Part shown: positions 1 to 44,636 of the stretch, piece after piece
Numbering within the stretch: the stretch's first letter is position 1
How the letters are laid out: every line of letters begins with the position of its first letter
Source of the DNA: Minisyncoccota bacterium
GTDB taxonomy: Bacteria; Patescibacteriota; Minisyncoccia; Phycocordibacterales; CSBR16-119
Assembly (NCBI GenBank): GCA_041389065.1
Contig: JAWKSM010000001.1
Location: 9,461 to 73,460, forward strand
DNA length: 64,000 nt
Direction of reading: 5' to 3'
Notes under the pieces: model-generated
Told to the model about the DNA's origin: nothing
The model's database searches: none
Seen by the model: the letters and a program-made list of their open reading frames with translations, nothing else
Position numbers and translations under genes: made by a program

Positions 1-1
1 C

Positions 2-625
2 CCAACCATGTTCATAGATCTCAACTATACCTTCACGCCATTCGCCATGGTCGAAGCAGGCAAAGCGAACCCAGAGGAAATCGTCGGCACTACGCCAGAT
101 TGTGCCCAGAAAGTGCACCCTGAGGGTGTCACCGTAATCCTTCTTCTTCCAGGTATCGGGGATGAACTCGGGGTTCTTTTTCAAGAACCCAAGCACGCAG
201 GCATTTAGGAGAGGTTTCTCGGCGATCTCCCTTTGAATGTCGTCCTTGCTAACCAACCTAAGTTTCGGTCGGTAAAGAACAACCTTCTTGCCATCGATAT
301 AGAGATCGTTGGGTGATCGTTTTTCGATCAACACTTTCCCTTCGCCAATATGGCTTTCAATCTTCATGCTAGAATTGAGCCACGGCGGCATCGCCTCGCT
401 ATCGAGATCGATGGTGGCAGAAAGCCACTCTGAGCGCTCATACTCCCTAACCCCCACGATCTCGTGTGAGCCTTTAACCAATCCCATCAGATCCTCCTTG
501 CGGATTTGATGAAAACGGTCAATGACGGGCTTGAAACTACCAAACCATCCGAGCCACTTCTTCAGGAGCTCGAGAGAAGATGCAAGGTTTTCACCTAACA
601 TCTCAACGACTTGTGTGTAAGCCAT
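2..625 (-). CDS. Hypothetical protein, N-terminal 208 codons. The ORF continues past the left window edge and is compositionally foreign.
   Basis: Hand translation of the minus strand from the ATG at 625-623 gives 208 sense codons with no stop down to position 2 (MAYTQVVEMLGENLASS...GEWREGIVEIYEHGW). It is absent from the supplied track because it has no in-window stop. It is visibly GC-richer than the flanking AT-rich DNA. A consensus promoter lies at 737-764. Confidence 0.6.
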   Translation of the reverse strand, partial: MAYTQVVEMLGENLASSLELLKKWLGWFGSFKPVIDRFHQIRKEDLMGLVKGSHEIVGVREYERSEWLSATIDLDSEAMPPWLNSSMKIESHIGEGKVLIEKRSPNDLYIDGKKVVLYRPKLRLVSKDDIQREIAEKPLLNACVLGFLKKNPEFIPDTWKKKDYGDTLRVHFLGTIWRSADDFLWVRFACFDHGEWREGIVEIYEHGW

Positions 626-736
626 TGCTATGTGAATTTAGTTACACTGGGCATTATTGCCACAGCTTTTAAAGCTCATAAAGCACTAAAAGCTATGGCA
701 AACGCTCATTTATATATAAAAGTACTTATTATATAT

Positions 737-764: not shown

Positions 765-785
765 TACACGCCCAGTAACCACTTC

Positions 786-982
786 CGACCGTTTTAAATA
801 TTGCGACGCAAAAATAATAGTATTTTGCCTTAGAAAATGATGCTGTTTGAGCCAGAAGAAGAAGTGTATATACACTTCTTCTTCTGGCGAGTTCATCATT
901 TTCTTGGCTCAAAATCTATTATTTTAAGCAATATTTAATTAGGTCTTGAATTTTTGTTACTTTTGCTTCAAGACAAAAGTAA
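786..982 (-). repeat. TCAAACAG-loop structured element, copy 1 (full length)
   Basis: Minus-strand order: 5' AT hairpin TTACTTTTG..CAAAAGTAA (982-957), then CAAAAATTCAAGAC, then the long hairpin at 925-811. The hairpin core is GAAAATGATG-AACTC-GCCAGAAGAAGAAGTG-TATATA-CACTTCTTCTTCTGGC-TCAAACAG-CATCATTTTC (903-833). A tail, GCGTCGCAATATTTAAAAC, follows. Confidence 0.7.
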
Positions 983-991
983 GAGAAAATC

Positions 992-1015: not shown

Positions 1016-3748
1016 TTAGAATTTCTCAAATTTCTCCATCACCTCCCCCTCTACTTCATCTCTCGGCCGACCAAATTTCATATATGAAAGTTCTTTTATC
1101 GGATCAACTATCGAATTATTTCCTTGTGGCCAGTTGTCGGTTTTCATACTAAAAGGTTTTGCTGGCTGTCCGCCCATAATCATCGCCATATACGCGTTTC
1201 GGTTATCGAGCTTGATAATATCGGAAACAGTGAAAATTGGTTCAACTCTTTTTTGTAAAGCTTCTGCATCTTCGGCACTAATTCTGAAAATCGCCATCGA
1301 ACCCACGTTACCCAAAACAGCACTTTTAATATTGTCGGGAAGCTGAGCCAAATATTGATGTGCCACATTTAAAGACAGCTTATACTTTCTAGCTTCTGAA
1401 AGGATTGAAGTTATTGAAGGTGTGACAACGTTTTGGAATTCGTCGATATAAAGATAGAAAGGTGAAAAATTTGTTCCAACAGAATCTGCTCGAGATAGCG
1501 CTGCCATTTGAAGCTTACCGACGAGAATAAGTCCGATAAGGTTTGAGTTTATCTCACCAAGTCTTCCCTTTGAAAGGTTCACAAGCAAGATCTTTTTATT
1601 GTCCATAATATCCCGGAAATTAAATGCCGACTTTTCTTGAGTAACTATCGGTCTCATAATTTCGTTTGAGATAAATGTATCAAATTTTGAAGTGATATAC
1701 GGAACGAAGTTTTCAAGACCTTGTTCTCCTTGGGTTGCTTCAGCATTTTTCCAAAATTGCTTTACGAGCGGGTTGTTTGTTTTTGCCAACTTCATATCGC
1801 GGAATTTTTTGTCTGACAAAACACGGCTAATTTCAAGCAAGGTCGAACCTGTTTCTGGATCGTCCATAACCAAGTTTGCACTGTTTTTGAAATATTGTTC
1901 GAACATTGGACCACCGGCTGTTTTCATATCAAAAAGCTGATTGAAAATTCCCATAAGTTCGTTTATCACAAAAGTTTTTTGCTCTGGTCTTGAAATGTCA
2001 TATTCGAGCATGTTTAGTCCCATTGGGCGCGGCGTATATGCTGGATCAAAGTAAATAACATCATCGATTCTTTCTTTTGGAATATTCGCGAGAATCGTTT
2101 CAATATCGTTTCCATGAGGATCGATATAACAAACACCATTTCCAGCTTGGATATCTTGAATAATCATATTCATCATAATTCCAGTTTTTCCTGTTCCTGT
2201 TTGACCGATAATATAAAGGTGTCGAAGCCTGTCTTCTGGCTGCATGAAAACTGGAGTTTCTTTTCCTCTGTAAATATTTGTTCCAAGACGAAGTCCTTCG
2301 AGTGTCATGTTTGTCGGAGCTGGCGCTTGTCCAGCTTTTGATTCTTTCAATTCTGGAGTTGTTGATTCGCTTATTGGGAAGTGAAAAACAGTCGAAAGCT
2401 CTTCGAGGTTTAGTGACATCGATTCTTTTTCGTTTGGAACTCTGAAAGAAAAATTATGCAAAAATACTGGCAAAGAAGATTCTTTTACTCTTTCAAATTT
2501 AAAACTATTTGATTTTGATTTATTAAACTGCTCGAAAGAAGATTCAATATCAGAAACAATATCTTGTGCTCTGTTTTTAGAATGTGCCGAAGCAATAATT
2601 CTGATACTTGTATTCACGACCGTGCTTTTTAGCTTTTTGTTTATAGCTTCAATAGCATCTGTGTCAGCTTCTTTTCTCTCTTCTTCTTTTTCAACTTTTT
2701 TCGGATTGAAAATTCCAACTGCAAAGTTTTTCAGTTCTTTTTTTACGACAGCGTATTCGTCGATAGCATCTTTAAGCTTTTCACCCTTTTTAACTTTTTC
2801 TAAAATCCCAGAAAACTTTTTTATCAAACTCTCACCCATTGGCACCACGACAATCTGAATCGCCGCACCTTCTGAATCGAGCCCGAGTTTTGAAAATGCA
2901 TTTAAAACAGCGTTCATCGGGTCGTGACCAAGCTCATCGTGAGTTGCTATTGGAAAAACATCTTCTTCACGAAGAGTTGCATATGAAGCGACGATTTCAG
3001 AGTCCTGACTAAAAATATTGTAATCATCTGTAACTTCGTTTATCTTTGCGCTGTGATAGAAAGCTAGGATTTGCTTTTCGAGTAATTCCTTTTTTTCTCT
3101 TGGAACAGAAACGTAAATAACCAAGTCGTTTGAATTGTAAGCATTTGCGATTTCAAGAGTGTAATATTGTTTGTCTTTATTGTGTTCACCGCGAGAGATT
3201 GCCTGCATTCCAGAAAGAAACTGCTTCATTCCTGTAATAAAATCAATGAAAGTTCTTTTTTCTTCTTTTACATTTCCTGGCAAAGTAATTTCAAAAAGCG
3301 CAAGATTTAGAGATTTAAATTCTGGTGAAGTCTCTTTTAATCCTGGAATATTTCCACTTGCATGCAAAAATTGAACCAAAAATCTATGAACGTCGTCTTC
3401 GATATGTGGGTTGTTCATTCGAGAAACCAGGTCGAGTGTGTTTTTTATCCCGTGTTCTAAAAGATATCCGTAGATTTCAGACATTTTGTCATCGTGCTCT
3501 TCTGGTTTTAATTTCAAAACAACTTGCTCTGCGTGTTTTTCTTCTGCTTTGTATCCTTTATTTAAAATCTCTTCGCTGTCTAACATTTCATATGCAGAAA
3601 CAGCTTCTCTTGAAACTTCTTCGCGTGATTTTGAAATATTTGATTCACGAAGTTCTTTTTCTCTCTCTTCGATATGTTTACGCAAAAAATCTATCTCCTC
3701 TTCTGGAGAATTAAACTTCGGAGTTTCTTTAAAATATGTACCTTCCAT
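1016..3748 (-). CDS. VirD4/TraD-like type IV coupling-protein-family ATPase with a long N-terminal extension
   Basis: 910-aa ORF. The C-terminal half carries Walker A IIGQTGTGKTG, Walker B YLYIDEFQNV and a downstream LNVAHQYLAQL motif typical of T4CP / TraG-D_C ATPases. No obvious N-terminal TM helices. Confidence 0.75.
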   Translation of the reverse strand: MEGTYFKETPKFNSPEEEIDFLRKHIEEREKELRESNISKSREEVSREAVSAYEMLDSEEILNKGYKAEEKHAEQVVLKLKPEEHDDKMSEIYGYLLEHGIKNTLDLVSRMNNPHIEDDVHRFLVQFLHASGNIPGLKETSPEFKSLNLALFEITLPGNVKEEKRTFIDFITGMKQFLSGMQAISRGEHNKDKQYYTLEIANAYNSNDLVIYVSVPREKKELLEKQILAFYHSAKINEVTDDYNIFSQDSEIVASYATLREEDVFPIATHDELGHDPMNAVLNAFSKLGLDSEGAAIQIVVVPMGESLIKKFSGILEKVKKGEKLKDAIDEYAVVKKELKNFAVGIFNPKKVEKEEERKEADTDAIEAINKKLKSTVVNTSIRIIASAHSKNRAQDIVSDIESSFEQFNKSKSNSFKFERVKESSLPVFLHNFSFRVPNEKESMSLNLEELSTVFHFPISESTTPELKESKAGQAPAPTNMTLEGLRLGTNIYRGKETPVFMQPEDRLRHLYIIGQTGTGKTGIMMNMIIQDIQAGNGVCYIDPHGNDIETILANIPKERIDDVIYFDPAYTPRPMGLNMLEYDISRPEQKTFVINELMGIFNQLFDMKTAGGPMFEQYFKNSANLVMDDPETGSTLLEISRVLSDKKFRDMKLAKTNNPLVKQFWKNAEATQGEQGLENFVPYITSKFDTFISNEIMRPIVTQEKSAFNFRDIMDNKKILLVNLSKGRLGEINSNLIGLILVGKLQMAALSRADSVGTNFSPFYLYIDEFQNVVTPSITSILSEARKYKLSLNVAHQYLAQLPDNIKSAVLGNVGSMAIFRISAEDAEALQKRVEPIFTVSDIIKLDNRNAYMAMIMGGQPAKPFSMKTDNWPQGNNSIVDPIKELSYMKFGRPRDEVEGEVMEKFEKF

Positions 3749-10323: not shown

Positions 10324-10593
10324 TTACCAAGAAGATTTTCTAATACCTGGAATTTCTCCTTCATTTGCCAATTCTCGAAACTTGATTCGAGAAAGACCAA
10401 AATCACGAAGAAAACCTTTTCCTCGACCTGTTGCCACGCATCTATTTTTTAGTCTCGATGATGAAGAATTCTTTGGAAGTTTTTGCAAAGCTTCAAAATC
10501 ACCAGAGGCTTTTAGTTCTGCTCGTTTTTTAGCAAATTTTGCGTGAAGTTTTACGCGTTTTGCTTGTCGAGCCAAGACTGATCTTTTTGCCAT
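10324..10593 (-). CDS. rpsN: 30S ribosomal protein S14 (uS14), long form
   Basis: Start re-assigned to the internal ATG at 10593 ([20 protein letters not shown]...GIRKSSW, 89 aa). The 39-codon upstream extension in the track has no S14 similarity. Confidence 0.9.
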
Positions 10594-10749
10594 ATTCTGA
10601 TCTAAACCAAAAGCAAGCTTTTGGTTGTTATTTATAAAAGAAACTGCAATATCTCGTGTTTTTACTTGTATTTTCGAGCCAAATGGCCAGAAAAACACAA
10701 GGAGAAACACGGATTAAACAGGATCTATCAGCTTTTTGCTGATGTTTGT

Positions 10750-10777
10750 ATATTAACAAAAAGGACTAAAAAGTCAA
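10750..10777 (-). promoter_or_regulatory. Sigma70-like promoter, TTGACT-16-TAATAT, re-starting transcription into rpsN
   Basis: Minus strand reads TTGACTTTTTAGTCCTTTTTGTTAATAT. It lies 9 nt outside the 5' hairpin of element copy 2. Confidence 0.45.
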
Positions 10778-10785
10778 TGGGCCTC

Positions 10786-10925
10786 CTTACTTTTTCATTA
10801 CCAAAAAGTAAGCAAAAGGCTAGACCCACACATACCACCTAAAAATAATAGATTTTAAGCTAAGAAAATGATGAACTCGCCCCGCAAAGAAGTGTTTAAT
10901 ACACTTCTTTGCGGGGCTCAAACAG
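10786..10925 (+). repeat. TCAAACAG-loop structured element, copy 2 (5' part only, interrupted)
   Basis: CTTACTTTTT..AAAAAGTAAG hairpin, CTAGACCCACAC motif, then AAAATAATAGATTTTAAGCTAAGAAAATGATG-AACTC-GCCCCGCAAAGAAGTGT-TTAA-TACACTTCTTTGCGGGGC-TCAAACAG. The 3' arm of the outer stem is missing, and Asd-like coding sequence starts at 10926. Confidence 0.7.
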
Positions 10926-11831
10926 GGTGGTTTCAATAGAGACCGGGTCAGAGTCTCTGGATCTTCTCGAAGGGGTGGGCTTACAACCGTTGGAGAACTC
11001 TTGAGCGAACCCCCAAACTTTATTTTGTCTGCCCTACCAGCCAAAGCTGCAAAGGAGATACTTCCTGAGTTTTCTGCAAGAGGCTCAATCGTTATCGATA
11101 AATCCGATGCATTCAGAATGCAGGAAGAGCCGGCTATTAAGTTGATCGTGCCTGAAGTAAATGGGCATTTACTGATAGGAGATGAAAGGATCGTTGCAAG
11201 TCCAAACTGCACAACCACACAACTTGTTGTTGCAATTAATCCCCTTCACAAGGAACTTAGGTTGTCCTCGCTTCACGTTACAACCTTTCAATCTGCAAGC
11301 GGGGCTGGGAAAGAAGGGTCTGAACAACTGCGCAAAGAGTCTCTGCGAATACCCGTTCCGAAAACTGAAATGGTTTTTCGACCACAGCTTTTCAGGAACG
11401 TGGTTCCAGTTTGCGGAAGTATCACAGGAAGCGGTGAAAGTACCGAGGAGCTAAAGATCAAAATGGAAACCAGAAAGATCATGGAGCTCCCCGACCTTCC
11501 GGTCTATGCAACATCGACAAGGGTTGCTGTTGAAAGATCGCACTCAATGTCTGTAGTTGCGAGATTTGAAAAGCCAACAACAGCAGCTTCTGTGATGGAA
11601 ATACTATCTCGAGAAGGTACTGGGGTTGAAATACCCTGTGACAACAGTGAGTATTTCACCGCCTTAGAAGCCTCTGGAGAAAACCTGGTCTATGTTAGCA
11701 GAATTCGCGTAGACAAAGATGATCCAAGAATTGTGAGCCTTTGGGTTGTTGCCGACAACCTAAGAAAAGGTGCGGCACTCAACGCTTGGCAAATAATGAA
11801 AATAATAATGAATCGCAAAGGGTGGTCCTAA
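10926..11831 (+). pseudogene. asd: Aspartate-semialdehyde dehydrogenase, 5'-truncated (no Rossmann GxxGxxG segment, no start codon)
   Basis: Translation shows Asd blocks: VSGSSRRGG, VIDKSDAFRM, LIVPEVN, active-site SPNCTTT, QSASGAG, VERSHS, ADNLRKGAALNA. Similarity continues upstream of the track's TTG start (11001) to about 10926 without any start codon. About 30 N-terminal residues are absent. GC is clearly higher than the host's. Confidence 0.8.
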
Positions 11832-11841: not shown

Positions 11842-11857
11842 CAATTTTATTAAAAAC

Positions 11858-11881
11858 AAAAACCACCTCTCGGTGGTTTTT
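11858..11881. terminator. Bidirectional intrinsic terminator directly after rplE
   Basis: AAAAACCACC-tctc-GGTGGTTTTT with flanking A- and T-runs, 10 nt from the rplE stop (11891). On the minus strand it would end the transcript inside the spc operon. Confidence 0.6.
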
Positions 11882-11890
11882 GTTTTTGAA

Positions 11891-12457
11891 TTATTTCTTC
11901 TTTTTCTTTGGTTCTGAGACTTTTTTAAATGGCATTCCGATGTGATCAAACAAAGCTTTTGCTTCTGCTTTTGTTTTTGCTGTAGTTGCAATAGTTACCG
12001 CCATTCCGAAAACATCTTTCAATTCTTCATCACCTGTTTCTGGGAAAATAGTGTGTTCGCGAACTCCAAGAGTTAGGTTTCCAATATTGTCGATAATTTT
12101 TGAATCAACTCCTCGGAAGTCTTTTGTTCGTGGAAGAGCAATGTTTATCAGCTTATCAATAAAAGAATACATTTTTTCTCCTCGAAGCGTTACCATCATA
12201 CCGATTGGCTCACCTTGTCTAACTTTGAATTGAGCGATAGATTTCTTTGCTTGTCGCATTGCTGGTTTTTGACCAGTGATTTTTGCAATTCTGTCTGCGA
12301 TAAAAGTGTTTTTGTTTTTATCGTTTCGCATTTTTGAACCAGTTCCCACAGAAATAACCACCTTTGTGATTTTTGGAGCGGCCATAGAATTTTTATAGCC
12401 AAACTCTCCTTTCAAGGCGTTATACGAATCTTTAATTTTTTCTTTTACTGTTTTCAT
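11891..12457 (-). CDS. rplE: 50S ribosomal protein L5 (uL5)
   Basis: 188 aa; conserved L5 blocks (PKITKVVISVGTG, MVTLRGEKMYSFIDKLI). Confidence 0.95.
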   Translation of the reverse strand: MKTVKEKIKDSYNALKGEFGYKNSMAAPKITKVVISVGTGSKMRNDKNKNTFIADRIAKITGQKPAMRQAKKSIAQFKVRQGEPIGMMVTLRGEKMYSFIDKLINIALPRTKDFRGVDSKIIDNIGNLTLGVREHTIFPETGDEELKDVFGMAVTIATTAKTKAEAKALFDHIGMPFKKVSEPKKKKK

Positions 12458-15681: not shown

Positions 15682-15695
15682 ACGATTTTAGACAT

Positions 15696-15916
15696 GTCAC
15701 TTTTTTCTTAGCAAAAAAGTGACCAAAAAGCCAAGACGCAGAAAAATCTAGCTAAAAACACAGGCTTTTTGTTGAGAAAACTGTGAACTCGCTTTTAGCT
15801 CAAACAGCACAGCTTTTCTAGAACAAAAAGCCTGTGTTTTCTTTACGCTATATTTTAAGCGTCGAAAGATTTTAATTTAAAACGAAGCCCCGCACCTTAC
15901 GGCGCGGTCTCAAAAT
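15696..15916 (+). repeat. TCAAACAG-loop structured element, copy 3 (full length, short inner stem)
   Basis: GTCACTTTTTT..AAAAAAGTGAC hairpin, CAAAAAGCCAAGACGCAG, then the long hairpin AACACAGGCTTTTTGTTGAGAAAACTGTG-AACTC-GCT-ttt-AGC-TCAAACAG-CACAGCTTTTCTAGAACAAAAAGCCTGTGTT. The tail is ACGCTATATTTTAAGCGTCGAAAGATTTTAATTTAAAACG. A GCCCCGCACC..GGCGCGG hairpin then follows, followed by CTCAAAAT. Confidence 0.7.
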
Positions 15917-15960: not shown

Positions 15961-16323
15961 CTACTGATTGCCGTTTTGGACAATCTTGTAGAAAAAAAGT
16001 GTGGTCTTGATGTACCCTGCTTCCCTTGGGTCGTGCACATACTTACTTGGATTTGTGTCACGTATATCACCAAAAACAATCTTCTCCACCAAAGCATTTA
16101 CGTGGGTTGCTCCGATATTCTTAGCCTTGGTCCCTGCAAAACGAATAATACTTGGATATGCAGACCACAAAAAGAAACTATTTCTGAAAACTGTCTCTTG
16201 TCGGACAGGCTCGTAAAATTCAAATCCAGAAAAACTATAGCCAAGTGAAATAACAATTTCTCCATCTACAAAAGGTTCTAGCTTAACTAAACCTTCTTTG
16301 TCTGAAGCGATTACTTTTATCAT
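15961..16323 (-). CDS. Hypothetical protein (120 aa), orphan inside the S10 operon
   Basis: Longest ORF in the segment, bracketed by hairpin terminators. No motif recognised. Slightly GC-richer than the r-protein genes, by eye. Confidence 0.55.
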   Translation of the reverse strand: MIKVIASDKEGLVKLEPFVDGEIVISLGYSFSGFEFYEPVRQETVFRNSFFLWSAYPSIIRFAGTKAKNIGATHVNALVEKIVFGDIRDTNPSKYVHDPREAGYIKTTLFFYKIVQNGNQ

Positions 16324-16423: not shown

Positions 16424-16867
16424 TCAATCAACGTCCGAGGAAACGTTTATTTCCCATGCAGAAGGTGCGCCACTAGGGAAAAATGCAATGAAGAAAGCAG
16501 ATAGTTTATTCCAGAAATTAGGGGTTGAAAACCTTCCTTCTGGAAAAAGGCTCCCGATTGTTGAAGACAAGTGCTTATCCCAGTTCTTCTGAAGGTTGAG
16601 GTGTCTCCTCAGCTCGTGAACAAGACGAGCATATTCTCCATTAACTTTACTTTTATCAATAACCATAAGATCGTCTATCAATGGATGCTCTCCACTTATA
16701 TCGAGTTTGAATTTCCTCACTGGACCAAGCTCATAGAGGAAGCGAAGCCAAAAAGTACAAAGCCATAGCGCAATTCGAGCACCAAAGTTTCCATGACCAA
16801 TCTTAAAGGTCTCAAGACTATAGCGAGCCTTTGCAAACCTGATATGTGATTTGTTTTTCTTTTCCAT
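16424..16867 (-). CDS. Hypothetical protein (147 aa), orphan inside the S10 operon
   Basis: Longest ORF in the segment; the overlapping plus-strand ORF is shorter. No motif recognised. Confidence 0.55.
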   Translation of the reverse strand: MEKKNKSHIRFAKARYSLETFKIGHGNFGARIALWLCTFWLRFLYELGPVRKFKLDISGEHPLIDDLMVIDKSKVNGEYARLVHELRRHLNLQKNWDKHLSSTIGSLFPEGRFSTPNFWNKLSAFFIAFFPSGAPSAWEINVSSDVD

Positions 16868-20029: not shown

Positions 20030-21226
20030 TTATTTGATGATTTTAACTACAACTCCGGCACCAACTGTTCTTCCTCCTTCTCGCACCGCAAATCTTTGTT
20101 GTTCTTCAAGGGCGATAGGTGCAACCAAGTTTACTTTGATATTTACAGTATCTCCTGGCATAACCATTTCTGTTCCTTCTGGAAGTGTTACTTCACCTGT
20201 TACGTCTGTTGTTCGAAGATAGAATTGTGGTTTGTAACCTTTGAAGAATGGAGTGTGTCGTCCACCTTCTTCTTTCTTTAGAACGTAGATTTCAGCTTCA
20301 AATTCTGTGTGAGGTTTTACTGAACCAACAGCAGCAAGAACTTGTCCTCGGTGAATATCTTCTTTCTTAGTACCTCGTAGTAGAAGTCCAGCGTTGTCTC
20401 CAGCCATACCTTCAGAAAGTTGTTTGTTGAACATTTCAACTCCTGTGATAGTTGTTTTTGTTGTTTCGTGTAGACCAACAATTTCAACTTCTTGACCAAC
20501 TTTGATAACACCTCTTTCAATTTTACCTGTAGCAACAGTTCCTCTTCCTTCGATAGAGAAAATGTCTTCAACTGGCATAAGGAAAGGTTTGTCTAGATCT
20601 CGAACTGGTTCTGGGATGTATGTATCAAGAGCATCCATAAGTTCCATAATCTTTCCAACCCAAGGATCGTTAGGATCTGTAGCTTCAGTAGCTTTTAGAC
20701 CTGATCCCTTAATAACTGGAGTGTTAGCTCCATCGAATCCGTTCTTTGTAAGAAGTTCTCGAATTTCTTCTTCAACAAGCATTACCATTTCTTCGTCTTC
20801 AACCATGTCTACTTTGTTTAGGAAAACAACGAATCTTGGCACACCTACTTGTTTTGCAAGAAGTACGTGTTCACGAGTTTGTGGCATCACACCATCTGTA
20901 GCTGCAACCACTAGGATTGCACCGTCCATTTGTGCGGCACCTGTAATCATGTTTTTGATGTAGTCAGCGTGACCTGGCGCGTCGATGTGCGCGTAGTGTC
21001 GCTTTTCTGTTTCATACTCTTGGTGAGAAAGAGAGATAGTAATACCTCTTTCTTTTTCTTCAGGAGCATTATCGATATCTGCTACTGACTTCATTGAAGC
21101 CATAAACCCCTTAAGCTTTAGAGCGTTAAGGATACCTGCAGTAAGAGTTGTCTTACCGTGGTCAACGTGTCCAATTGTACCCACGTTTACGTGAGGCTTT
21201 GAACGATCAAACATTTCTGCTGCCAT
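20030..21226 (-). CDS. tuf: Elongation factor Tu
   Basis: 398 aa; [22 protein letters not shown]-motifs. Confidence 0.98.
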
Positions 21227-21339
21227 AATATTATATATTGGTTGATGTCTTTAATTTTGTGCACGAGAACTGTGACAAAACCAACGACACCAACATAATT
21301 ACTTAATAATTTACTAATGTGCACTACACATATTTTCAT

Positions 21340-21507
21340 CCTAAAATCGGTTTTTAGGAAACAAAAAGACGCGTAAGTGCGCTGTGGAGTATTGTATATG
21401 AAAAGAGTTGAGGCGTCAAGGAGTTTTTTTCTTTTATTAAATGAAAGGATTTAATTTAAAAAGAAAGCCCCGCAGTCCTTCCGGACTGCGGGGTTTACTC
21501 AAACAAG
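21340..21507 (+). repeat. TCAAACAG-loop structured element, copy 5 (degenerate)
   Basis: CCTAAAA..TTTTAGG hairpin, AAACAAAAAGACGCG, then the tail GAGGCGTCAAGG ... GGATTTAATTTAAAAAGAAA. A GCCCCGCAGTCC-ttcc-GGACTGCGGGG hairpin follows (same GCCCCGCA/TGCGGGG ends as the copy 2 inner stem), followed by TTTA-CTCAAACA-AGG. The long outer hairpin is missing. Confidence 0.5.
21391..21419 (-). promoter_or_regulatory. Sigma70-like promoter, TTGACG-17-TACAAT, reading toward tuf
   Basis: Minus strand reads TTGACGCCTCAACTCTTTTCATATACAAT. The -35 box is the reverse complement of the conserved GCGTCAAGG tail motif of the element. Confidence 0.4.
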
Positions 21508-21517
21508 GAACAGATCA

Positions 21518-21787
21518 CTATGTCAGCATCTGCATCTGGTAGTTGGGTCGGACAACCGTTCCATTGTCGAGAAGAGGTTTCAGGTCAAGCCAGACCAGCT
21601 CATGCAAACGAGGCAACGGGAATTTTGGCTGAGGTAACATCTCAACATCAAGCTTCTCTAGTAGAGCTTTGGCGAGATACTCATTAAGCTCTGACTCATT
21701 TGCGATAGTGTCTCCCTCTAGCCAATCCCGGAAGCGAAAGAGGGATTCCATGAACCCAAGCTTCGATTTCCGAATTGCGCTCATCAT
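21518..21787 (-). CDS. Hypothetical protein (89 aa), orphan between fusA and tuf
   Basis: ORF in a GC-richer segment, downstream of the 62-aa ORF on the same strand in a different frame. Confidence 0.5.
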   Translation of the reverse strand: MMSAIRKSKLGFMESLFRFRDWLEGDTIANESELNEYLAKALLEKLDVEMLPQPKFPLPRLHELVWLDLKPLLDNGTVVRPNYQMQMLT

Positions 21788-21840
21788 GTCACCGTGACAT
21801 AGATGACGGCAACACTCCTGTGGAAGCTGGTTTGACAGAT

Positions 21841-22029
21841 TTAGTATGAAGATGACAGATCTATTACCAGCCTTATCAATAATGCGAGCTTCCCGGACCA
21901 GTAACTCGGAAGTGAGTGGCGCACCTTATGTCCCCAATCATCCTCATATTGAGGTCCAGCGTTTTCGGAATTATCCTGAAAACCCACACGAAATTCGATA
22001 TTCATGGTTACTCCTTCGAGAGTTTTCAT
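21841..22029 (-). CDS. Hypothetical protein (62 aa), orphan between fusA and tuf
   Basis: ORF preceded by the promoter at 22072-22100. It could be a separate small gene or the 5' part of a frameshifted gene continuing in 21518..21787. Confidence 0.4.
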   Translation of the reverse strand: MKTLEGVTMNIEFRVGFQDNSENAGPQYEDDWGHKVRHSLPSYWSGKLALLIRLVIDLSSSY

Positions 22030-22071
22030 GGTGTTTCGTTCTAGTTAGAAGTGCTTTCTTCTTCAAAATTA

Positions 22072-22100
22072 ATATTACTCTTACTAAAAAACTTTTGCAA
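22072..22100 (-). promoter_or_regulatory. Sigma70-like promoter, TTGCAA-17-TAATAT
   Basis: Minus strand reads TTGCAAAAGTTTTTTAGTAAGAGTAATAT, about 40 nt upstream of the ATG at 22029. Confidence 0.45.
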
Positions 22101-22108
22101 GCCAAAAC

Positions 22109-22134
22109 AAAAATCTCCCTCTCGGGAGATTTTT
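22109..22134 (-). terminator. Intrinsic terminator directly after fusA
   Basis: AAAAATCTCCC-gaga-GGGAGATTTTT, 22 nt after the fusA stop. fusA-tuf is normally co-transcribed. Confidence 0.6.
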
Positions 22135-22155
22135 GCTTTTGCTTATTTAAATTAT

Positions 22156-24309
22156 TTAAGCTGTTTGTCTTTTTTTGATTATTTCTTCTGAAACGTTCTT
22201 TGGAACAACATCGTATCGTAGGAATTCCATTGTGAAGTTTCCTCGTCCTGCAGTCATTGATCGAAGATTGTTGATATATCCGAACATTGATGAAAGTGGA
22301 ACAACTGCTTTAATAGCTTGAACCATTCCTCTGTCTTCTGTTCCTTCGATAAGCCCTCTCTTTGATGCAATATCTCCAGTAATGTCTCCCATATATGAGT
22401 GAGGGGCAACAACTTCAACTTTCATCATCGGTTCAAGAATAACAGGACTTGCTTTCTTTGCAGCATCTTGGAAAGCCATTGATGAAGCAATTTTGAACGC
22501 AATTTCAGAAGAGTCCACGTCGTGATACGATCCATCGTATAGATCAACTCGAATATCAGTCATTGGGTATCCAGCAAGAACACCTCTTGCCATTGATTCT
22601 CTAAATCCTTTTTCACAAGCTGGAATATATTCTTGAGGAATAACACCACCTTTGATTGAGTTTACAAATTCCAAACCATCTTCTCTTGAAACGTTCTTTG
22701 GCAAATCTTCTTCAGCCACAGAATAATCAAGTGGAGAAACTCTGATCTTAACGTGACCGTATTGTCCGCGACCTCCTGATTGTTTGATGTATTTATTTTC
22801 AACGTCAGCAGTTCCAGAAATAGTTTCTCGGAAAGCAACTTGTGGAGCACTTGTATTTGCTTCAACAGAAAACTCTCTTTTCATTCTGTCTACGATAATA
22901 TCAAGGTGAAGTTCTCCCATACCAGCGATGATTGTTTCGCCTGTTTCAGGATCTGAAGAAACTCGGAAAGTTGGATCTTCTGCTTGAAGTCTGTTTAGAG
23001 CAAGACCCATTTTTTCTTGGTCTGCTTTTGTCTTTGGTTCAATTCTCATTGAGATAACCGGTTCTGGCGCAACAATCTTTTCAAGCATTATTGGATGATC
23101 TTCATTACAAAGAGTGTCTGATGTTGTTGTATCTTTAAGACCAACAGCAGCAGCGATTTCTCCAGCGTAAACAACCTTCACTTCTTCTCTGTCGTTTGAG
23201 TGCATTCGAAGAATTCTACCGACTCGCTCTTTTATACCTTTTGTAGCGTTGTAAACATAAGAACCTGATTCTAGTTTTCCAGAATATACTCGGATGAAAG
23301 TTAGCTGACCAACGTATGGATCTGATTGAAGCTTGAAAGCCAGTGCAGCAAGCGGGGCTTCGTCAGAAACTTCTCTTTCAACTGTTTCGTTTGTTTCTGG
23401 ATCAATACCTTTTGGTTTTGGAATATCAAGTGGACTTGGAAGATAATCAACAACACCATCCAAAACCAATTGCACTCCTTTGTTCTTTAGAGCTGATCCA
23501 CAAAATACTGGGAAAATTTCATTTTTGATAACAGCAGATCGAAGAGCTTTTTTCAAATCTTCAACAGAAAAATCTGTCTTTCCTTCAAGATATTCTGACA
23601 TCATCGCTTCGTCAGTTTCTACAATTTTTTCTACAAGCTCCATTCGAAGTTTTTCAGCCTCATCTTTGTATTCAGCTGGAATTTCCATTTCTACAATGTC
23701 TTTTCCTTTATCTCCTTCGAACTTATAAGCTTTCATTTTTATAAGATCAATAACAGCTTCGAACTTGTCTTCAAGTCCAATAGGAATTTGAATTCTGACA
23801 GCCTTTTTTGTAAGACGCGCCAAAATACTTTCGAAAGATCTTTCAAAAGAAGCACCTGTTCTGTCTAGTTTGTTAATAAAACAAAGTCGTGGCACGTTTC
23901 CATCATCAGCATATCTCCAGTTTGTTTCTGATTGCGGCTCTACCCCAGCCACTCCATCGAAAACAACAACAGCACCGTCCAAAACTCGAAGAGATCTTTT
24001 CACTTCAATAGTGAAGTCGATGTGACCCGGTGTGTCGATTAGGTTAAACTGACACTTTTTTGAAGTATCTGTTGCAGGCATATATGAAGGGCTCCAAAAT
24101 GCTGTTGTCGCAGCAGAGGCGATAGTGATTCCTCGCTCTCTTTCTTGTTCCATCCAGTCCATCACTGTTTCTCCGTCGTGAACTTCGCCTATTTTGTGAC
24201 TTTCACCAGTATAAAAAAGCACACGTTCTGATGTTGTTGTTTTACCAGCATCGATGTGAGCAATGATTCCAAAATTTCTAACTTTAGCGAGTGGGTAGTC
24301 TCTGTTCAT
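22156..24309 (-). CDS. fusA: Elongation factor G
   Basis: 717 aa; [21 protein letters not shown] motifs and full domain complement. Confidence 0.98.
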
Positions 24310-25451: not shown

Positions 25452-27293
25452 CTAGTTCAGAACAACCTTCACACTTTCGGTTTCTTGTTCACCGATAATG
25501 ATCAGGTTGTACACACCAGGCGATCCTTTTATGACCACCTGGCTACCACTCCTTTGCACCGAAGCTTCTCGACCGAGATGGTCGAAAGCTTGAATGCTTT
25601 GGAATTCACCCTTGATGTTAATCGCTTCACCCAGTCGAGCTGGGTTCGGATACACCAAGTAGCTGTCTGGTTTTTCAGGCCAGAAGCTGAAAGGTTTGAT
25701 GTTTGAAAAGTCATACGACCCGTCAAGGTCGACAGACTTCAGTCTGTAGAAGCTAAGCCCTTCAAGAGGACTCTCATCCACAAACTCATATTGGATCATC
25801 TGCTGGCTATTACGAGAAGCCTCGACAGACCCAACACTTTCAAACACCCTCCCGTCGACTGATCGCTCGACGTCGAAGTGACTACTTCCTTGCTCGCTGG
25901 CAGTCTGCCAAGTTACAAGCGCGGTTTCGTTTTCTCCTTCGACGTCAAACGAAGCAAGTTCGACAGGAAGAACCTGTCCACACGGCACAACCACAGGCTG
26001 GTAGGAGTCGAGCTCCACCAACGCTTCGGTCATTGTCGTGTTTGTAGTCGTTGGAACGTTTTGCACCTGGTTAAAGAATGCTGGGTAAGCGGTGAGCTCG
26101 ATACTCCCCGCCTCTTCACAAGAGCTAAGCACCAATCCTTGGCTTCCGACCGGCGTCACTATGGACCCAGTCGAAGAGTCTTTGTCTTGGTAACTCAGCA
26201 TTTGGAAGTAAGTGGATTCGATAATCCCCTTTCCCGGGGCGCCTCCACCTTCGTAAACGGTTTTGGTCCACGACGCACCCAAAGTGACTTGATCAACCTT
26301 AGACACGAACGAATACGACATGTCTGGGTCTGGCGACGAATTGATCGCTTGACCAGTCATGTAGATACTCGTTCCGTCGGTAGTTAGGTAACCACCATTG
26401 ACCGTCCAACCCGATGGCGCGAAGATGATGCTTGCGCTAAGCAGGTTCAGGCTGCCGTCAGTGCGGACAAGTCCCAAGTGCTGACTCGATGACCCTCTGT
26501 ATGAGAGAAGGAATCCACCTTGATATGGAACTGCGTCGCGCAGAAACTCATCAGCAGTGGACCCGATGGTTGTTTGCCTGTGGCATACACCCAGGTTATC
26601 AAACACCGTCACCGAAATGTCATACGGACCTCCCGATGTTGGATTGCTCCCGAAAAGGAAAATCGAATCCCCGGAAGCAAAAACTCGTTCAGCATGATGA
26701 CCACCGCTAAGCGATCTATCAACTGACTTCCACCACAGGATGTTTCCCGCAGCGTCGAGCTTGCCGATCATCTGGGTTCTCGTCGAGGACGATGTTCTCT
26801 TTGTCCCAGCAACGATTATCTCACCGCTAGGATTTTCAGAAACCGAAGTCAGAACTTCTGTCGTGTCTCGCGACACAATTGGAGTTCCCAAAACCTTCGC
26901 CCAAATAACGTCGCCAGATTGATTCAGTCTCATCGCCAACGCATCTTGCTGGTATTCGCCAACAATAACGATGTCTCCGTTCGAAGCCAGCAGCATGTCG
27001 TTGAAACGACACGTTGCCATAGCGATATCGCAGGAACTCACCGGAATATATACCAGAGTGTCCGAAAGGGTTTTGGCCCAAACAGTTCCTCCAGCATTGT
27101 GACGTGCCACGAAGGCGTTATCGAAACCGTCCCTGGTGTTGTAACCAGAAACGATGAAGTCTCCACTTACAGGAAGACTCACAATCCTTTGACCAACAAG
27201 AGCTTGCCCTGTGGTCGCCGGATCAAGATTGATCTGCTGAGCTGCCAACTCGAAAGTCAGGAGCCCAAAGGCGAAAACAAGGAAGTTTCTCAT
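25452..27293 (-). CDS. Secreted repeat protein with T9SS type-A C-terminal sorting domain (Por_Secre_tail-like)
   Basis: Start set at the ATG at 27293, giving signal peptide MRNFLVFAFGLLTFELAAQQ. The C-terminus VYPNPARLGEAINIKG...GVYNLIIIGEQETESVKVVLN matches the T9SS CTD pattern. It is preceded by the ELASF...W.T.SE...F.VERS.DG...YRLK..D.DG module common in Bacteroidota. GC and GC3 are clearly higher than the host's. Confidence 0.8.
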   Translation of the reverse strand: MRNFLVFAFGLLTFELAAQQINLDPATTGQALVGQRIVSLPVSGDFIVSGYNTRDGFDNAFVARHNAGGTVWAKTLSDTLVYIPVSSCDIAMATCRFNDMLLASNGDIVIVGEYQQDALAMRLNQSGDVIWAKVLGTPIVSRDTTEVLTSVSENPSGEIIVAGTKRTSSSTRTQMIGKLDAAGNILWWKSVDRSLSGGHHAERVFASGDSIFLFGSNPTSGGPYDISVTVFDNLGVCHRQTTIGSTADEFLRDAVPYQGGFLLSYRGSSSQHLGLVRTDGSLNLLSASIIFAPSGWTVNGGYLTTDGTSIYMTGQAINSSPDPDMSYSFVSKVDQVTLGASWTKTVYEGGGAPGKGIIESTYFQMLSYQDKDSSTGSIVTPVGSQGLVLSSCEEAGSIELTAYPAFFNQVQNVPTTTNTTMTEALVELDSYQPVVVPCGQVLPVELASFDVEGENETALVTWQTASEQGSSHFDVERSVDGRVFESVGSVEASRNSQQMIQYEFVDESPLEGLSFYRLKSVDLDGSYDFSNIKPFSFWPEKPDSYLVYPNPARLGEAINIKGEFQSIQAFDHLGREASVQRSGSQVVIKGSPGVYNLIIIGEQETESVKVVLN

Positions 27294-27364
27294 GGGTTTG
27301 TGTGTTTTATGTGTGAATGTTCGCAAAGTGCGAACGTGTCTTACAATGTACTTTCTCAGCCTCT

Positions 27365-27393
27365 TTTATACCATTTTTGACATAAAAAGTCAA
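27365..27393 (-). promoter_or_regulatory. Sigma70-like promoter, TTGACT-17-TATAAA
   Basis: Minus strand reads TTGACTTTTTATGTCAAAAATGGTATAAA, in the AT-rich spacer upstream of protein A. Confidence 0.4.
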
Positions 27394-27429
27394 GTGTATG
27401 CGTGGATTATAAATTAACCTAAAAAAAAC

Positions 27430-27458
27430 TTGATTTTACTGCTTTTATGTGTTATTAT
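27430..27458 (+). promoter_or_regulatory. Sigma70-like promoter, TTGATT-17-TATTAT
   Basis: TTGATTTTACTGCTTTTATGTGTTATTAT, 28 nt upstream of the ATG at 27487. Confidence 0.4.
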
Positions 27459-27486
27459 TTAGCCGAACAACAAACACCATCAAACG

Positions 27487-28641
27487 ATGAAACAGCTAAC
27501 GCTTCTCTTTGCTTTGATGGTCGCCACCGGCACCTTCAAAGCTTACGCTCAGGATGTCGTCTACACTTTCGAAGCCCCCTGCACGAACACACTTTGCCCT
27601 TCTGACCAATGCCACGGAGTTGGAGTTGCAACCCCAAGCACCCTTAACACAAGCGTTTTCGCTTCTGCAAGCGCGCTAAATCCATCACCCTCCCTAGGAA
27701 CAAGTAGTTCATTTTGTGGAACGGCCATGAATGGATTTGCTGCGGGAAACCCAAACAATCCGAACCGTGCTCGTTGGGCCCAGAACTGGACTAGCTCTAC
27801 TACTATAAACACGAATCACTATTTTGGATTCACTCTTGGAGCAGTTCAAAATGGATACATTTCCATATCAAGAGTGGATTTACAAGACAGTAGAAGTGGA
27901 TCTGGCCCACTAACAATCGAACTTCGTTCAAGTGCAGACAACTTTGCAACAACAATCTGGCAACAAACATTGCCAGACAACACTGGGTGGAGATCTTGGT
28001 CAATAACTACAGGACTACCGAGCTTCTACAACTCTCTGACTTTTAGAATCTATGCATACGCAAGCCAGACGACATCTGGCGCTGCATGGAGGATTGATAA
28101 CGTCAAAGTCTGGGCTTCGGTCACCAACCTCCCTATCGAGCTAATCTCTTTCACTGGAGAAAAGTTTGAACAGGATGTACGACTTCGTTGGAAAACAGCC
28201 AGCGAGCAAGACAACGAGCACTTCACTCTCTTTCGTTCACGGGATGCAATAGACGCAACATCCTGGGAAGAGATTGGAAGAGTTCCTGGAGCAGGAACAA
28301 GTCAGAGTCCTATCGACTACGAGTATGTAGATGAGTCACCGAACATCGGGACAAACTACTACCTTCTTCGTCAAACGGACTTTGATGGAACATTCACCAG
28401 TAGCAACATTGTTGCTGTCGAATTCCTAGCTTCAAAGGACTTCTCAGTGTTCCCAAATCCGACATCGCGTGGTAGCCCCGTCAGAACTTCCAAGAGAATC
28501 GACTTCATTTTCGATGATCTTGGTAAAATGACGAGGTTTGACCCGAACAACATCACACTTGAAGTGCCTGGGGTCTACACCCTGGTCCACCAAAGTGAAA
28601 ACGGTTTTTCGGAAACAATCCGACTAATCGTCACCCCCTAG
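27487..28641 (+). CDS. Secreted protein with T9SS type-A C-terminal sorting domain
   Basis: 384 aa; signal peptide MKQLTLLFALMVATGTFKAYAQD. Contains the same ELISF...RWKTASEQDNEHF...YYLLRQTDFDG module as protein A. The C-terminus is FPNPTSRG...GVYTLVHQSENGFSETIRLIVTP. Confidence 0.8.
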   Translation: MKQLTLLFALMVATGTFKAYAQDVVYTFEAPCTNTLCPSDQCHGVGVATPSTLNTSVFASASALNPSPSLGTSSSFCGTAMNGFAAGNPNNPNRARWAQNWTSSTTINTNHYFGFTLGAVQNGYISISRVDLQDSRSGSGPLTIELRSSADNFATTIWQQTLPDNTGWRSWSITTGLPSFYNSLTFRIYAYASQTTSGAAWRIDNVKVWASVTNLPIELISFTGEKFEQDVRLRWKTASEQDNEHFTLFRSRDAIDATSWEEIGRVPGAGTSQSPIDYEYVDESPNIGTNYYLLRQTDFDGTFTSSNIVAVEFLASKDFSVFPNPTSRGSPVRTSKRIDFIFDDLGKMTRFDPNNITLEVPGVYTLVHQSENGFSETIRLIVTP

Positions 28642-28651
28642 AAATTCTAGG

Positions 28652-28686
28652 AAGACCTTCGCCTCACGGCGAAGGTCTTTTCTTTT
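28652..28686 (+). terminator. Intrinsic terminator after protein B
   Basis: AAGACCTTCGCC-tcac-GGCGAAGGTCTT followed by TTCTTTTT. Confidence 0.65.
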
Positions 28687-28694
28687 TATTTATA

Positions 28695-28722
28695 TTGACA
28701 AAAAATATTTCTGTGATATTAT
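28695..28722 (+). promoter_or_regulatory. Sigma70-like promoter, TTGACA-16-TATTAT
   Basis: TTGACAAAAAATATTTCTGTGATATTAT, 39 nt upstream of the ATG at 28762. Confidence 0.45.
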
Positions 28723-28761
28723 TCAACCAAAACAAACCCCGTCCTTTAACAGAAACAGATC

Positions 28762-30465
28762 ATGAAAAAACTACTGACCATAATCATGACGCTTTGCGTC
28801 TGCTTTGTGTACGCGCAAGACCAGATCAGCTGGGTGCGTTTCCAGTGCGGCGATAGCAGCACGGTGAGATACATCTCACTCGAGGACCGCAAGACCATGT
28901 TCAAGGTGAACATGTCCTGGCCCGAGAATGAAACGCGAGAAGTGTTCCAACACTACAACGACAACCCCATTGGCGTGTCCATGGGGCAAATGCAGGGTGG
29001 TGAATACTTCATCACCCTGGATCACCCTGGTGATAGTATCAATCCAGTAATCGGATACCAGAGCATCTACACTGTCAGACTGGGAACCGCAAATGGGAAT
29101 CACACGGAAGACTGCAATGTCCGCACTGAACCAACACCAGTTATTCAAGCCACTATGAGCACCAGCCCGCTTTCGGGCGGCGGCTCACTCGTAACCATTA
29201 TTGGAAACTCACACACAGCAGACACTGTAGCGAGCAACCATAGTGGTTGGGGCTGGATAAGTAATAGCGAGCTACCATGTAGTCGCCACGAGATCTCCAT
29301 CATCACCGATGTGTTTTCTGAAGACGGCCTGGTGTTTTCGGACACGACGGTATGTGTTCCGGGTGTGCCAACAGACTTCTCTGCTGAGTTTGACTATACG
29401 GGTCCGTACACCATATTGTGCGCGGAAAGCCGAATGGAAAAACGAAGCATGGAAGTTCCTGCCGAATTTCCAACACGAGTTATTGTTCTCAGCAGTCAAA
29501 CGTGTCAGATGGCAGGGCAAGTTCCTCCGAGCATCGAGCTTTTGAGAACTTGTGAAGATGGCACTATCGGCACACCACCGACAACAGGAGACAGAGAGTT
29601 CCTCGTTCGATTCAATATCGATTGGCCGGGCGACGATGAGCAGAAACTCCTCTACTACACCGTCCCGAACAACAATACCGGACTACCGAATTTGGTGAGC
29701 AGTGGACAACTCTTCCATCGTGGGCAAAACTACATCGTGATTGAACACGATGATATTGACCCCGTTTCGGGAAGTGCATACTTCCAGGAATGGCACACCA
29801 AGCTGGCCTTCCGTTACGGTGAGGAGTTCATCTACAGTCAGCTTTTCATCGCGTCGACGGAACCCGCGCCAGTGCTCGAAGGATCGTGGCTCCCTGTAAG
29901 TGGAGACTCGGTGTCGTTCTCTTACCGAGAGCACACGGAACTATCCGAAGCGCTCGGCTGGGGATGGATTCTGGGCATATGTCCAGAATATGAGCTCATA
30001 CTCATCAAACGGGTGACCGATAGCGATGGAGAAACAGTGTTCACGGACACGGTCTTCCTCACTCCGGGAATACCTGTTGATGAAGAAGATGGCTTCCTTT
30101 ATACAGGCAACTCAACCGAGCTCTGCCTTGAACTCGAGATGCAACGCATTCACCTCGCTGATTCGGTTCACTTCGAGCCGCAAACAATCATAACGGTGGA
30201 TGGTGGATGCATTGGAAGCTCGACAGCGATTAGCGAAAGCGAAGGTGTTGCCGAGAACCAAACTCGAATCTTTCCAAACCCAACAACGGGGCGAGAAGTT
30301 CGGATACTCGGAGCCATACCTAGCTCGAAGTGGTCTGTCTTCAGTACATCAGGAAGCCTGGTGTTGACTGGAGCAGGTCAGATGATCGATGTTTCTACGC
30401 TGTCCTCTGGTGTTTACGTGGTGAACATTGAAGGCGGCGCCACTGTTCGGCTTGTCCGACAGTAG
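28762..30465 (+). CDS. Secreted protein with an internal ~240-aa duplication and a T9SS type-A C-terminal sorting domain
   Basis: 567 aa; signal peptide MKKLLTIIMTLCVCFVYAQD. The two halves share TEP(T/A)PV, GWGWI, VF(S/T)DT, PG(V/I)P and YTG blocks. The C-terminus is FPNPTTGREVRILG...GVYVVNIEGGATVRLVRQ. Confidence 0.8.
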   Translation: MKKLLTIIMTLCVCFVYAQDQISWVRFQCGDSSTVRYISLEDRKTMFKVNMSWPENETREVFQHYNDNPIGVSMGQMQGGEYFITLDHPGDSINPVIGYQSIYTVRLGTANGNHTEDCNVRTEPTPVIQATMSTSPLSGGGSLVTIIGNSHTADTVASNHSGWGWISNSELPCSRHEISIITDVFSEDGLVFSDTTVCVPGVPTDFSAEFDYTGPYTILCAESRMEKRSMEVPAEFPTRVIVLSSQTCQMAGQVPPSIELLRTCEDGTIGTPPTTGDREFLVRFNIDWPGDDEQKLLYYTVPNNNTGLPNLVSSGQLFHRGQNYIVIEHDDIDPVSGSAYFQEWHTKLAFRYGEEFIYSQLFIASTEPAPVLEGSWLPVSGDSVSFSYREHTELSEALGWGWILGICPEYELILIKRVTDSDGETVFTDTVFLTPGIPVDEEDGFLYTGNSTELCLELEMQRIHLADSVHFEPQTIITVDGGCIGSSTAISESEGVAENQTRIFPNPTTGREVRILGAIPSSKWSVFSTSGSLVLTGAGQMIDVSTLSSGVYVVNIEGGATVRLVRQ

Positions 30466-33312: not shown

Positions 33313-33351
33313 AGCAATAATTATATCAGATATTGAAAAACTGATAAAAAC

Positions 33352-33375
33352 AAAAACACCCTTTCGGGTGTTTTT
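33352..33375 (-). terminator. Intrinsic terminator after the glycine-rich giant gene
   Basis: AAAAACACCC-gaaa-GGGTGTTTTT. Confidence 0.6.
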
Positions 33376-33383
33376 GTTTTCTA

Positions 33384-44609: not shown

Positions 44610-44636
44610 GGTATGAAGGGATTTGTTGCGTCGGAT

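Follow-up and report, generated by a model that had tools for sequence, protein, structure and literature searches.

A frameshifted, lineage-specific gene between fusA and tuf in a Minisyncoccota bacterium

Gene X in the fusA-tuf spacer

The window analysed here is a stretch of 64,000 nt from a Minisyncoccota bacterium (assembly GCA_041389065.1, contig JAWKSM010000001.1), a low-GC fragment (mean 37.7% GC) with the minus-strand gene order rpsL, rpsG, fusA, spacer, tuf, rpsJ, rplC. The 929-nt spacer is bounded upstream by fusA (22156..24309, minus strand), assigned from the list of open reading frames (ORFs) and from homology of its 717-aa product EF-G to that of the related loci L084, L085, and L089. 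Downstream it is bounded by tuf (20030..21226, minus strand), the 398-aa product of which (EF-Tu) is at most 80% identical to EF-Tu of Nomurabacteria, Kaiserbacteria, and other Parcubacteria-type metagenome-assembled genomes. Two listed minus-strand ORFs occupy the spacer, one of 62 aa (ORF62; 21841-22029) and one of 89 aa (ORF89; 21518-21787), lying in separate frames with 53 nt between them. A preliminary description of this DNA had placed here a hairpin behind fusA, a promoter, these two ORFs, a second hairpin, and a tuf promoter, within a GC-richer segment; all of these features were found at the positions given, and the GC content of the segment is 45-48% against the window mean. It had also offered two readings of the ORF pair, i.e., one frameshifted gene or a toxin-antitoxin-like pair. 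Our analysis indicates that ORF62 and ORF89 are the halves of a single gene, herein designated X (21518..22029, minus strand), broken by one missing G.

The first 46 residues of X are encoded by ORF62, which then runs into a 16-residue out-of-frame tail, and the ORF89 frame, without a stop from 21925 on, encodes the remainder of X. Codon-position bias (G at position 1; GC1 > GC2) follows the ORF62 frame from 22029 to ~21910 and then the ORF89 frame to 21518, i.e., coding periodicity changes frame near 21930-21900; this switch, together with the open ORF89 frame, hinted at a single shifted gene. Joining ORF62 and ORF89 over a -1 shift, as the preliminary description had proposed for a check, gave a 170-aa protein, and a search with the joined translation returned five full-length proteins (P0001-P0005) at 93, 71, 65, 47, and 40% identity with coverage of 95-100%. 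Exhaustive HMMER and profile searches added P0006 and P0008, and a metagenome scan yielded one further copy of an already-found X locus. The X homologues number eight, all full-length and uninterrupted, at 38-99% identity and including one that is 99% identical. The family alignment is colinear over the junction, between PSYWSG and EARIIDK, and the family profile matches both fragments in the window (7e-64 and 5e-23). Since the joined translation has full-length, uninterrupted homologues, the two ORFs are taken as one gene, which bears out the first of the two earlier readings.

Profile and structure searches on the small ORFs had been proposed as well. Separately, neither ORF62 nor ORF89 matched Pfam or PHROGs, and neither gave a match by word-indexed search of a 5.8-billion-cluster protein set, by exact-sequence look-ups, or by metagenome and viral contig scans. 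These negative fragment searches were misleading, as the first matches appeared only with the joined translation; it was the profile of the joined family that matched both ORFs. AlphaFold2 models on 7- and 8-sequence alignments reached a mean pLDDT of 43 and 41, too low for fold comparison. A coding test based on host codon-usage log-odds was tried and set aside because it could not tell coding from non-coding in the segment, X not following host codon preferences.

That ORF62 and ORF89 might instead form a toxin-antitoxin-like pair is suggested by their being two small, adjacent, same-strand ORFs behind one promoter. Given that they are colinear fragments of one protein family, that ORF62 ends in 16 residues of out-of-frame read-through, and that neither the parts nor the whole match any toxin, antitoxin, or defence family in Pfam, PADLOC, NCBIfam, or PHROGs, we accord this second earlier reading almost no credence. 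Equally negligible, in our estimation, is the chance that the segment encodes a structured non-coding RNA. A GC-rich island within an AT-rich spacer would suit such an RNA, but Rfam at gathering and at permissive thresholds gave only terminator-like noise, no tRNA or tmRNA was found, and codon periodicity, a dN/dS of 0.16 between X and its L084 homologue (i.e., purifying selection), and protein-level conservation down to 38% identity all speak for a protein.

The site of the break was located by comparison with the intact allele of L083/P0001. Contig L083 is 97% identical to window positions 22248-21445, and has TCCGGGGAAGCT at the place of the window's TCCGGGAAGCT; the frameshift thus corresponds to a GGG run at 21892..21894 (minus strand) versus GGGG in the intact allele (tccggg[g]aagct). 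Over the 513 nt of X, the two differ besides this indel by one nonsynonymous and no synonymous substitution. The missing G would mark a null allele of very recent origin, or it would result from a wrong base call in the assembly. The latter, with a miscalled 4-base homopolymer and an X that is intact and expressed, is in our judgment unlikely, though its chance is appreciable. It is favoured by X being under purifying selection otherwise, by the absence of further disabling mutations in the gene, and by G-run length being, apart from the one substitution, the only difference from L083. Conversely, at four bases the run is short for a systematic error, and breakage is not apparent in any other conserved gene of the 64-kb window, with long ORFs continuous through fusA, tuf, and the ribosomal protein genes. 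Moreover, a truncated asd fragment (see below) shows that this genome does carry gene remnants. As a null allele, it would imply that X is dispensable in the strain of the window.

A functional split, in which programmed ribosomal frameshifting or phase variation of the G run controls X, could be proposed from the position of the break within a homopolymer and from the ability of a -1 shift to rejoin the frames. Programmed frameshifting is unlikely because the relatives are continuous (all eight, including the 99%-identical one), because the site TCC GGG AAG is no X XXY YYZ slippery heptamer, and because the G run is not conserved in other family members. Phase variation is further disfavoured because known contingency tracts are far longer than 3-4 bases. 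We consider a functional split highly improbable.

Predicted transcription units around X

Behind fusA lies an intrinsic, bidirectional-looking terminator hairpin (22108..22135, minus strand; folding energy -28.2 kcal/mol, z -7.6), the 3' T-run of which stops 7 nt before the -35 box of the predicted X promoter, TTGCAA (22100-22095), 17 nt, TAATAT (22077-22072), spanning 22072..22100 on the minus strand. A terminator hairpin likewise sits directly upstream of the X promoter in 7 of the 8 X loci. In all eight, the proteins of which span 38-99% identity, TTGCAA and TAnnnT are separated by exactly 17 nt, the last three being GAG, with 23-42 nt to the ATG; the -35 box, the 17-nt spacing, and T1, A2, and T6 of the -10 box are thus invariant. 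A generic promoter scan misses this site because only 8 of 12 positions match. The phylogenetic footprint is the best evidence that the promoter, which the preliminary description had already pointed to, would be real. The untranslated leader of X would be ~42 nt, and its first ATG is without a Shine-Dalgarno sequence, as is that of tuf; a GGAG ahead of Met9 in X is part of the conserved EGV codons.

The gene is followed by an intrinsic terminator (21458..21493, minus strand; hairpin 21493-21468) with an 11-bp GC-rich stem, a GGAA loop, and a T-run, the sequence being CCCCGCAGTCC-GGAA-GGACTGCGGGG and then the T-run (-26.7 kcal/mol, z -5.1). The hairpin is kept in L081, L083, and L084, and a strong terminator follows X in every one of the eight loci. 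Both terminators of the spacer are GC-rich stem-loops with a T-run, and more stable than shuffled sequences. Terminators in this DNA share one design, namely AAAAA, a GC stem of 6-7 bp, a GAGA-type loop, the return stem, and TTTTT; the fusA terminator (22104-22139) has a look-alike at 62699-62734 (32 of 36 nt), and a similar design is found at 11852-11887 and 33346-33381. Such a shared design can mimic the ends of repeat elements, and the idea that the hairpin upstream of X is part of a mobile module was downgraded since all terminators of the genome look alike.

Between the X terminator and tuf there are 240 nt, within which TTGACG-17-TACAAT (21391..21419, minus strand; 10 of 12 positions) is the only good candidate for a tuf promoter on that strand. 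The ensuing leader of ~165-169 nt (21227 to 21390 or 21395, minus strand) is putatively structured, folding into two long hairpins at -47.4 kcal/mol versus -27.8 +/- 3.7 kcal/mol for shuffles (z -5.3); it had no Rfam match.

The succession of terminator, promoter, coding segment, terminator, and tuf promoter set out in the preliminary description therefore holds at the sequence level. In the proposed course of events, fusA transcripts would stop at 22108-22135, X would be transcribed alone from its own sigma-70-type promoter up to the strong intrinsic terminator, and tuf would be started anew, most likely from TTGACG-17-TACAAT, and be expressed through the structured leader; the deletion of GGGG to GGG at 21892-21894 would split X into the 62-aa and 89-aa ORFs. 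As X sits right behind the fusA terminator with a promoter and terminator of its own, the rpsL-rpsG-fusA-tuf order would be cut into separate transcription units, and fusA, X, and tuf are expected to form three of them.

Distribution of X and its residence behind fusA

The X family is exceedingly small. Three true relatives are present among 1.84 billion representative proteins and seven protein clusters were found overall, such that the known members, from ~5.8 billion clustered and 1.84 billion representative proteins, are the window and its eight relatives. A fourth weak match, the 581-aa repeat protein P0007, aligned over residues 59-101 only and was discarded as no true relative. The proteins, taken to be soluble, are acidic (pI 4.9-5.5), hydrophilic, and without membrane segments, with an N-terminus (MKTLEGVT) and a C-terminus (KPLLDxGxxxRPNYQMEML) that are kept down to 38% identity. 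The family alignment had no match in Pfam, NCBIfam, PADLOC, PHROGs, or PDB sequences. By tblastn, X had no match in phage genomes or plasmids, and the family profile matched none of the viral contigs scanned; no paralogue exists within the 64-kb window, and X was not found at 80 EF-Tu loci of other bacteria. By these searches X would be a new protein family, known only from metagenomes and confined to a small Parcubacteria-type (Patescibacteria) clade.

X lies directly behind fusA in six lineages (the window, L083, L084, L085/86, L089/90, and L092). The EF-G products of L084, L085, and L089, each carrying EF-G Pfam domains, are 94% (88 residues), 89% (332 residues), and 86% (714 residues) identical to that of the window, with L084 and L085 containing only the C-terminal 88 and 332 residues. 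The divergence of X ranks in the same order as that of fusA, and dS of X is never below that of the adjoining fusA. The preliminary description had called the segment foreign, and with regard to composition it is indeed atypical: the GC content of the X segment is at the 93rd percentile of 500-nt stretches of the window, and its GC3 is 0.50 versus 0.265 +/- 0.087 for 61 window ORFs. Recent import does not agree with the six-lineage synteny and the parallel divergence, from which we conclude that X would be an old resident of the clade. In the simplest reading, X was probably already behind fusA in the ancestor of the clade and is fast-evolving.

Occupancy of this junction was surveyed at the 36 loci with the most similar EF-Tu (L001-L036; mostly Patescibacteria) and in 23 other bacteria, a comparison of the fusA-tuf spacer that had been proposed as a check. 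In 21 of the 36 loci fusA is upstream of tuf, and in 19 of these 21 the gap measures 359-4111 nt, compared to 10-346 nt (mostly <170 nt) in the 23 other bacteria. The gap is therefore occupied in most Patescibacteria relatives, as it is in the window, but by varied cargo that is in no case related to X, including a DUF805 protein, a response regulator, large proteins, and orphans. A small protein (KKTGDRIIVFD...YVxMSLxEYEKL) that matches the Phd/YefM antitoxin below threshold is common to eight of the 36 loci. An occupied fusA-tuf junction is normal for the Patescibacteria-type group, and X is one lineage's occupant. As the junction is routinely filled by unrelated lineage-specific genes, EF-Tu expression there must be uncoupled from fusA.

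Several observations weigh against X being a long-resident, separately transcribed gene of the str order. In the window, L083, L084, and L087, X has a GC3 of 0.49-0.54, far above that of these low-GC hosts, which is unexpected for a long resident. In L081/L091, a close relative with ribosomal proteins 68-93% identical, X is found between rplE and rpsN, and in L087/88 the gene upstream of X is not fusA; X must therefore have moved at least once. Sites from the generic promoter scan are not more numerous in the spacer region than in shuffled sequence, because of which the tuf promoter is assigned from its position, and the activity of promoters and terminators, as well as the restart at tuf, is read from sequence features. 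Lastly, these searches gave no family or structural clue to any biochemical role of X. Our most likely guess, held with low confidence, is that X may be an accessory protein of the cytoplasm that is connected with the translation apparatus, since in 7 of 8 lineages the gene identified upstream of X, fusA or rplE, serves translation.

The surroundings of X in its relatives show further features. In L084, the closest relative with sequence beyond X, the next gene is not tuf and encodes a protein with an ART-PolyVal ADP-ribosyltransferase domain (L084:1004-1591; Pfam 1.1e-9). In deeper-branching relatives, a convergent gene for a 90-96-aa protein comes right after X (L085:1768-1977, L086:1213-1485, L087:776-1066, L089:8602-8877, and L092:1115-1387); this is by appearance a membrane protein, lysine-rich towards the N-terminus and hydrophobic towards the C-terminus, that belongs to no Pfam family and has no homologue in the window. 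Short TAGC/CTAG-rich spacers with stops in all frames flank the X unit at L083:170-200, L087:55-100 and 735-775, L089:8575-8600, and L092:1080-1110.

A palindromic element, atypical inserts, and known systems

The window also contains four copies of a palindromic repeat element of ~220 nt, at 770-990 (reverse), 10777-11002, 15689-15880, and 43701-43918, and further copies are present in relatives (L083:808-958 and L081:4197-4360). The element forms a long imperfect hairpin with compensatory changes in 23 of 48 pairs and invariant loop sequences GAACTCGC and GCTCAAACAG, and one of its ends carries a small hairpin that also covaries. No Rfam family matches it, and among 92 fetched loci it is restricted to the closest relatives.

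A degenerate copy of this element had been proposed for the fusA-tuf spacer, a claim that stands in small part. The element profile (nhmmer --max, E up to 100) has no match in 21227-22155, alignment of the spacer with the element shows no core, and similarity to the left end of the element is at chance level (402 of 500 shuffles reach the score). At the right end, a 22-nt stretch adjoining the X terminator (21443-21465) resembles the right flank of the element, with 5 of 500 shuffles reaching the score, and GCGTCAAGG occurs twice in the window versus 0.21 times expected. In L083, a full copy, nearly identical to the window copy at 15689-15880, begins at exactly this site, and in L081 a copy comes just after X. 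The sequence at 21413..21465 (GCGTCAAGG, a 26-nt insert, and GATTTAATTTAAAAAGAA) may accordingly be a short remnant or junction of the right end, i.e., the spacer would hold at most a ~50-nt terminal remnant, or else be an unoccupied junction. The earlier remark that the tail motif GCGTCAAGG is also the -35 box of the candidate tuf promoter describes the sequence correctly. The loop motif CTCAAACA(AGG), which had been noted at the asd junction as well, is at chance level (3 matches at <=1 mismatch versus 1.8 expected). Since strains near-identical in X differ in the presence of the element, the latter is evidently turning over between very close strains.

Each of the four element copies in the window has an atypical or orphan gene directly beside it. 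Between rplE (11891-12457) and rpsN (10324-10710), a 5'-truncated fragment of aspartate-semialdehyde dehydrogenase (asd; 11001-11831, plus strand) lies on the opposite strand and adjoins an element copy in the spc operon, matching Pfam Semialdhyde_dhC (4.5e-34) and, of the NAD domain, just the tail; in L081, the same rplE-rpsN gap holds X in place of the asd fragment. The S10 operon is interrupted between rplB and rpsS by two orphan ORFs of 120 and 147 aa (15961-16323 and 16424-16867, both minus strand; GC3 0.35-0.38, no Pfam match), and an element copy follows. Between tig (42481-43539) and clpP (44755-45345), the strongly GC-rich stretch 44100-44723 comes right after an element copy, and has overlapping ORFs on both strands (169 aa, minus; 187-189 aa, plus), of which the minus-strand ORF is without a Pfam match. 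At the left edge, a GC-rich (48%) ORF (1-700, minus strand) continues beyond the window; ahead of it are an element copy and a perfect promoter, TTGACA-17-TATAAT, and it lies downstream of a gene for 910 aa (1016-3748).

Two other observations concern the same gene clusters. Immediately upstream of rpsL, the block 25452-30465 contains three genes with GC3 of 0.45-0.56 and signal-peptide-like N-termini, and L089 has large secreted-type proteins at the equivalent place. Upstream of rpsN, a stretch of ~60 nt (~10715-10775, minus strand; L081:4440-4540) is almost identical in the window and L081, and lies downstream of a TTGACx-17-TAwTAT promoter; the GTG-started 128-aa "rpsN" ORF of the window probably includes this conserved leader.

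These data bear on whether X could be the cargo or mobility gene of a small mobile cassette that moves among terminator-proximal sites in the translation cluster, with or via the element. Such movement would explain why the promoter-gene-terminator block of the window (22140 to 21458) is found 70% identical at the different rplE-rpsN site in L081/L091, and it would suit the atypical GC3, the association of element copies with atypical genes, the full copies behind the X terminator in L083 and L081 as opposed to an end remnant in the window, and the differing presence of the element in strains nearly identical in X. Against this, X occurs as one copy per locus without a paralogue in the window, was not found in the phage, plasmid, or viral collections, and matches no transposase, recombinase, or nuclease family, having no invariant His (thus neither HUH nor HNH). 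Its divergence tracks that of fusA with dS not smaller, which gives no sign of recent exchange, and the left "end" of the module may be just the generic terminator of the upstream gene. We regard such a cassette as improbable. Slightly less doubtful, while still improbable, is a broader speculation: X and the other atypical genes in conserved operons (the asd fragment and the rplB-rpsS, tig-clpP, and left-edge ORFs) might be the cargo of undescribed Parcubacteria cassettes, the element serving as a recombination or insertion site by terminators, with a promoter in or behind each insert from which the essential gene downstream would be started anew.

Compared to known arrangements, X in the window, here considered again as a resident gene, shares features with several. 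Nearest to it is the conserved str/S10/spc operon cluster, in which terminators and promoters are juxtaposed between operons (PMC6735719). The window likewise keeps the rpsL-rpsG-fusA-...-tuf-rpsJ-rplC order, and its fusA terminator abuts the next promoter; unlike that cluster (PMC6735719), it has an extra gene with its own promoter and terminator inside the str unit. Resemblance to ORFan genes and to pseudogenes made by homopolymer indels is found in the tiny family, the lack of a known domain, and the single-base indel in a G run, but a promoter that is invariant over 38-99% protein identity and a persistent linkage to translation genes set X apart from ORFans.

Minimal insertion sequences (IS) of the IS200/IS605 type measure ~700 bp, and have one small gene and hairpins at both ends, the left of which is a terminator. 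The X unit is similar in its ~680 nt from hairpin to hairpin, its single small ORF, the terminator-like hairpin upstream, and the hairpin downstream; it differs in lacking a Y1/HUH signature, a Pfam match, or an invariant His in the 8-sequence alignment, and in a divergence that follows the host gene, and its copy number is one in the 64-kb window. Free-standing homing endonuclease genes, e.g., seg and mob of phage T4, are inserted between conserved genes. X is comparably small, has its own promoter, and lies between highly conserved genes at two different intergenic sites, yet it has no GIY-YIG, HNH, or LAGLIDADG match and was not found in viral collections. Its likeness to IS200-type sequences and to homing endonuclease genes is limited to size and placement. 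The 220-nt element itself is reminiscent of MITE-, REP-, or attC-like repeats, being an imperfect palindrome with covarying stems that is present in several copies per genome and adjoins atypical genes; the X-tuf spacer differs in that no more than ~50 nt from the right end of the element are present. Integron core sites (GTTRRRY / RYYYAAC) were not visible by eye in the conserved loops of the element, no integrase search having been made, and in the literature searched, neither this locus nor any integron-like system of Patescibacteria was described.

Overall, our analysis characterizes X as a lineage-specific orphan gene, here freshly frameshifted. We consider it quite probable that a single monocistronic gene of a rare Parcubacteria-clade family splits the str order into separate units at this locus, and that it has been broken by a 1-nt deletion. 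For annotation, the two hypothetical ORFs are to be merged into one frameshifted gene, and are not to be counted as a toxin-antitoxin pair. With its invariant promoter and its persistent address by translation genes in a Parcubacteria clade, the X family is of modest biological interest; the palindromic element and its link with the inserts in conserved operons may be the more promising lead.

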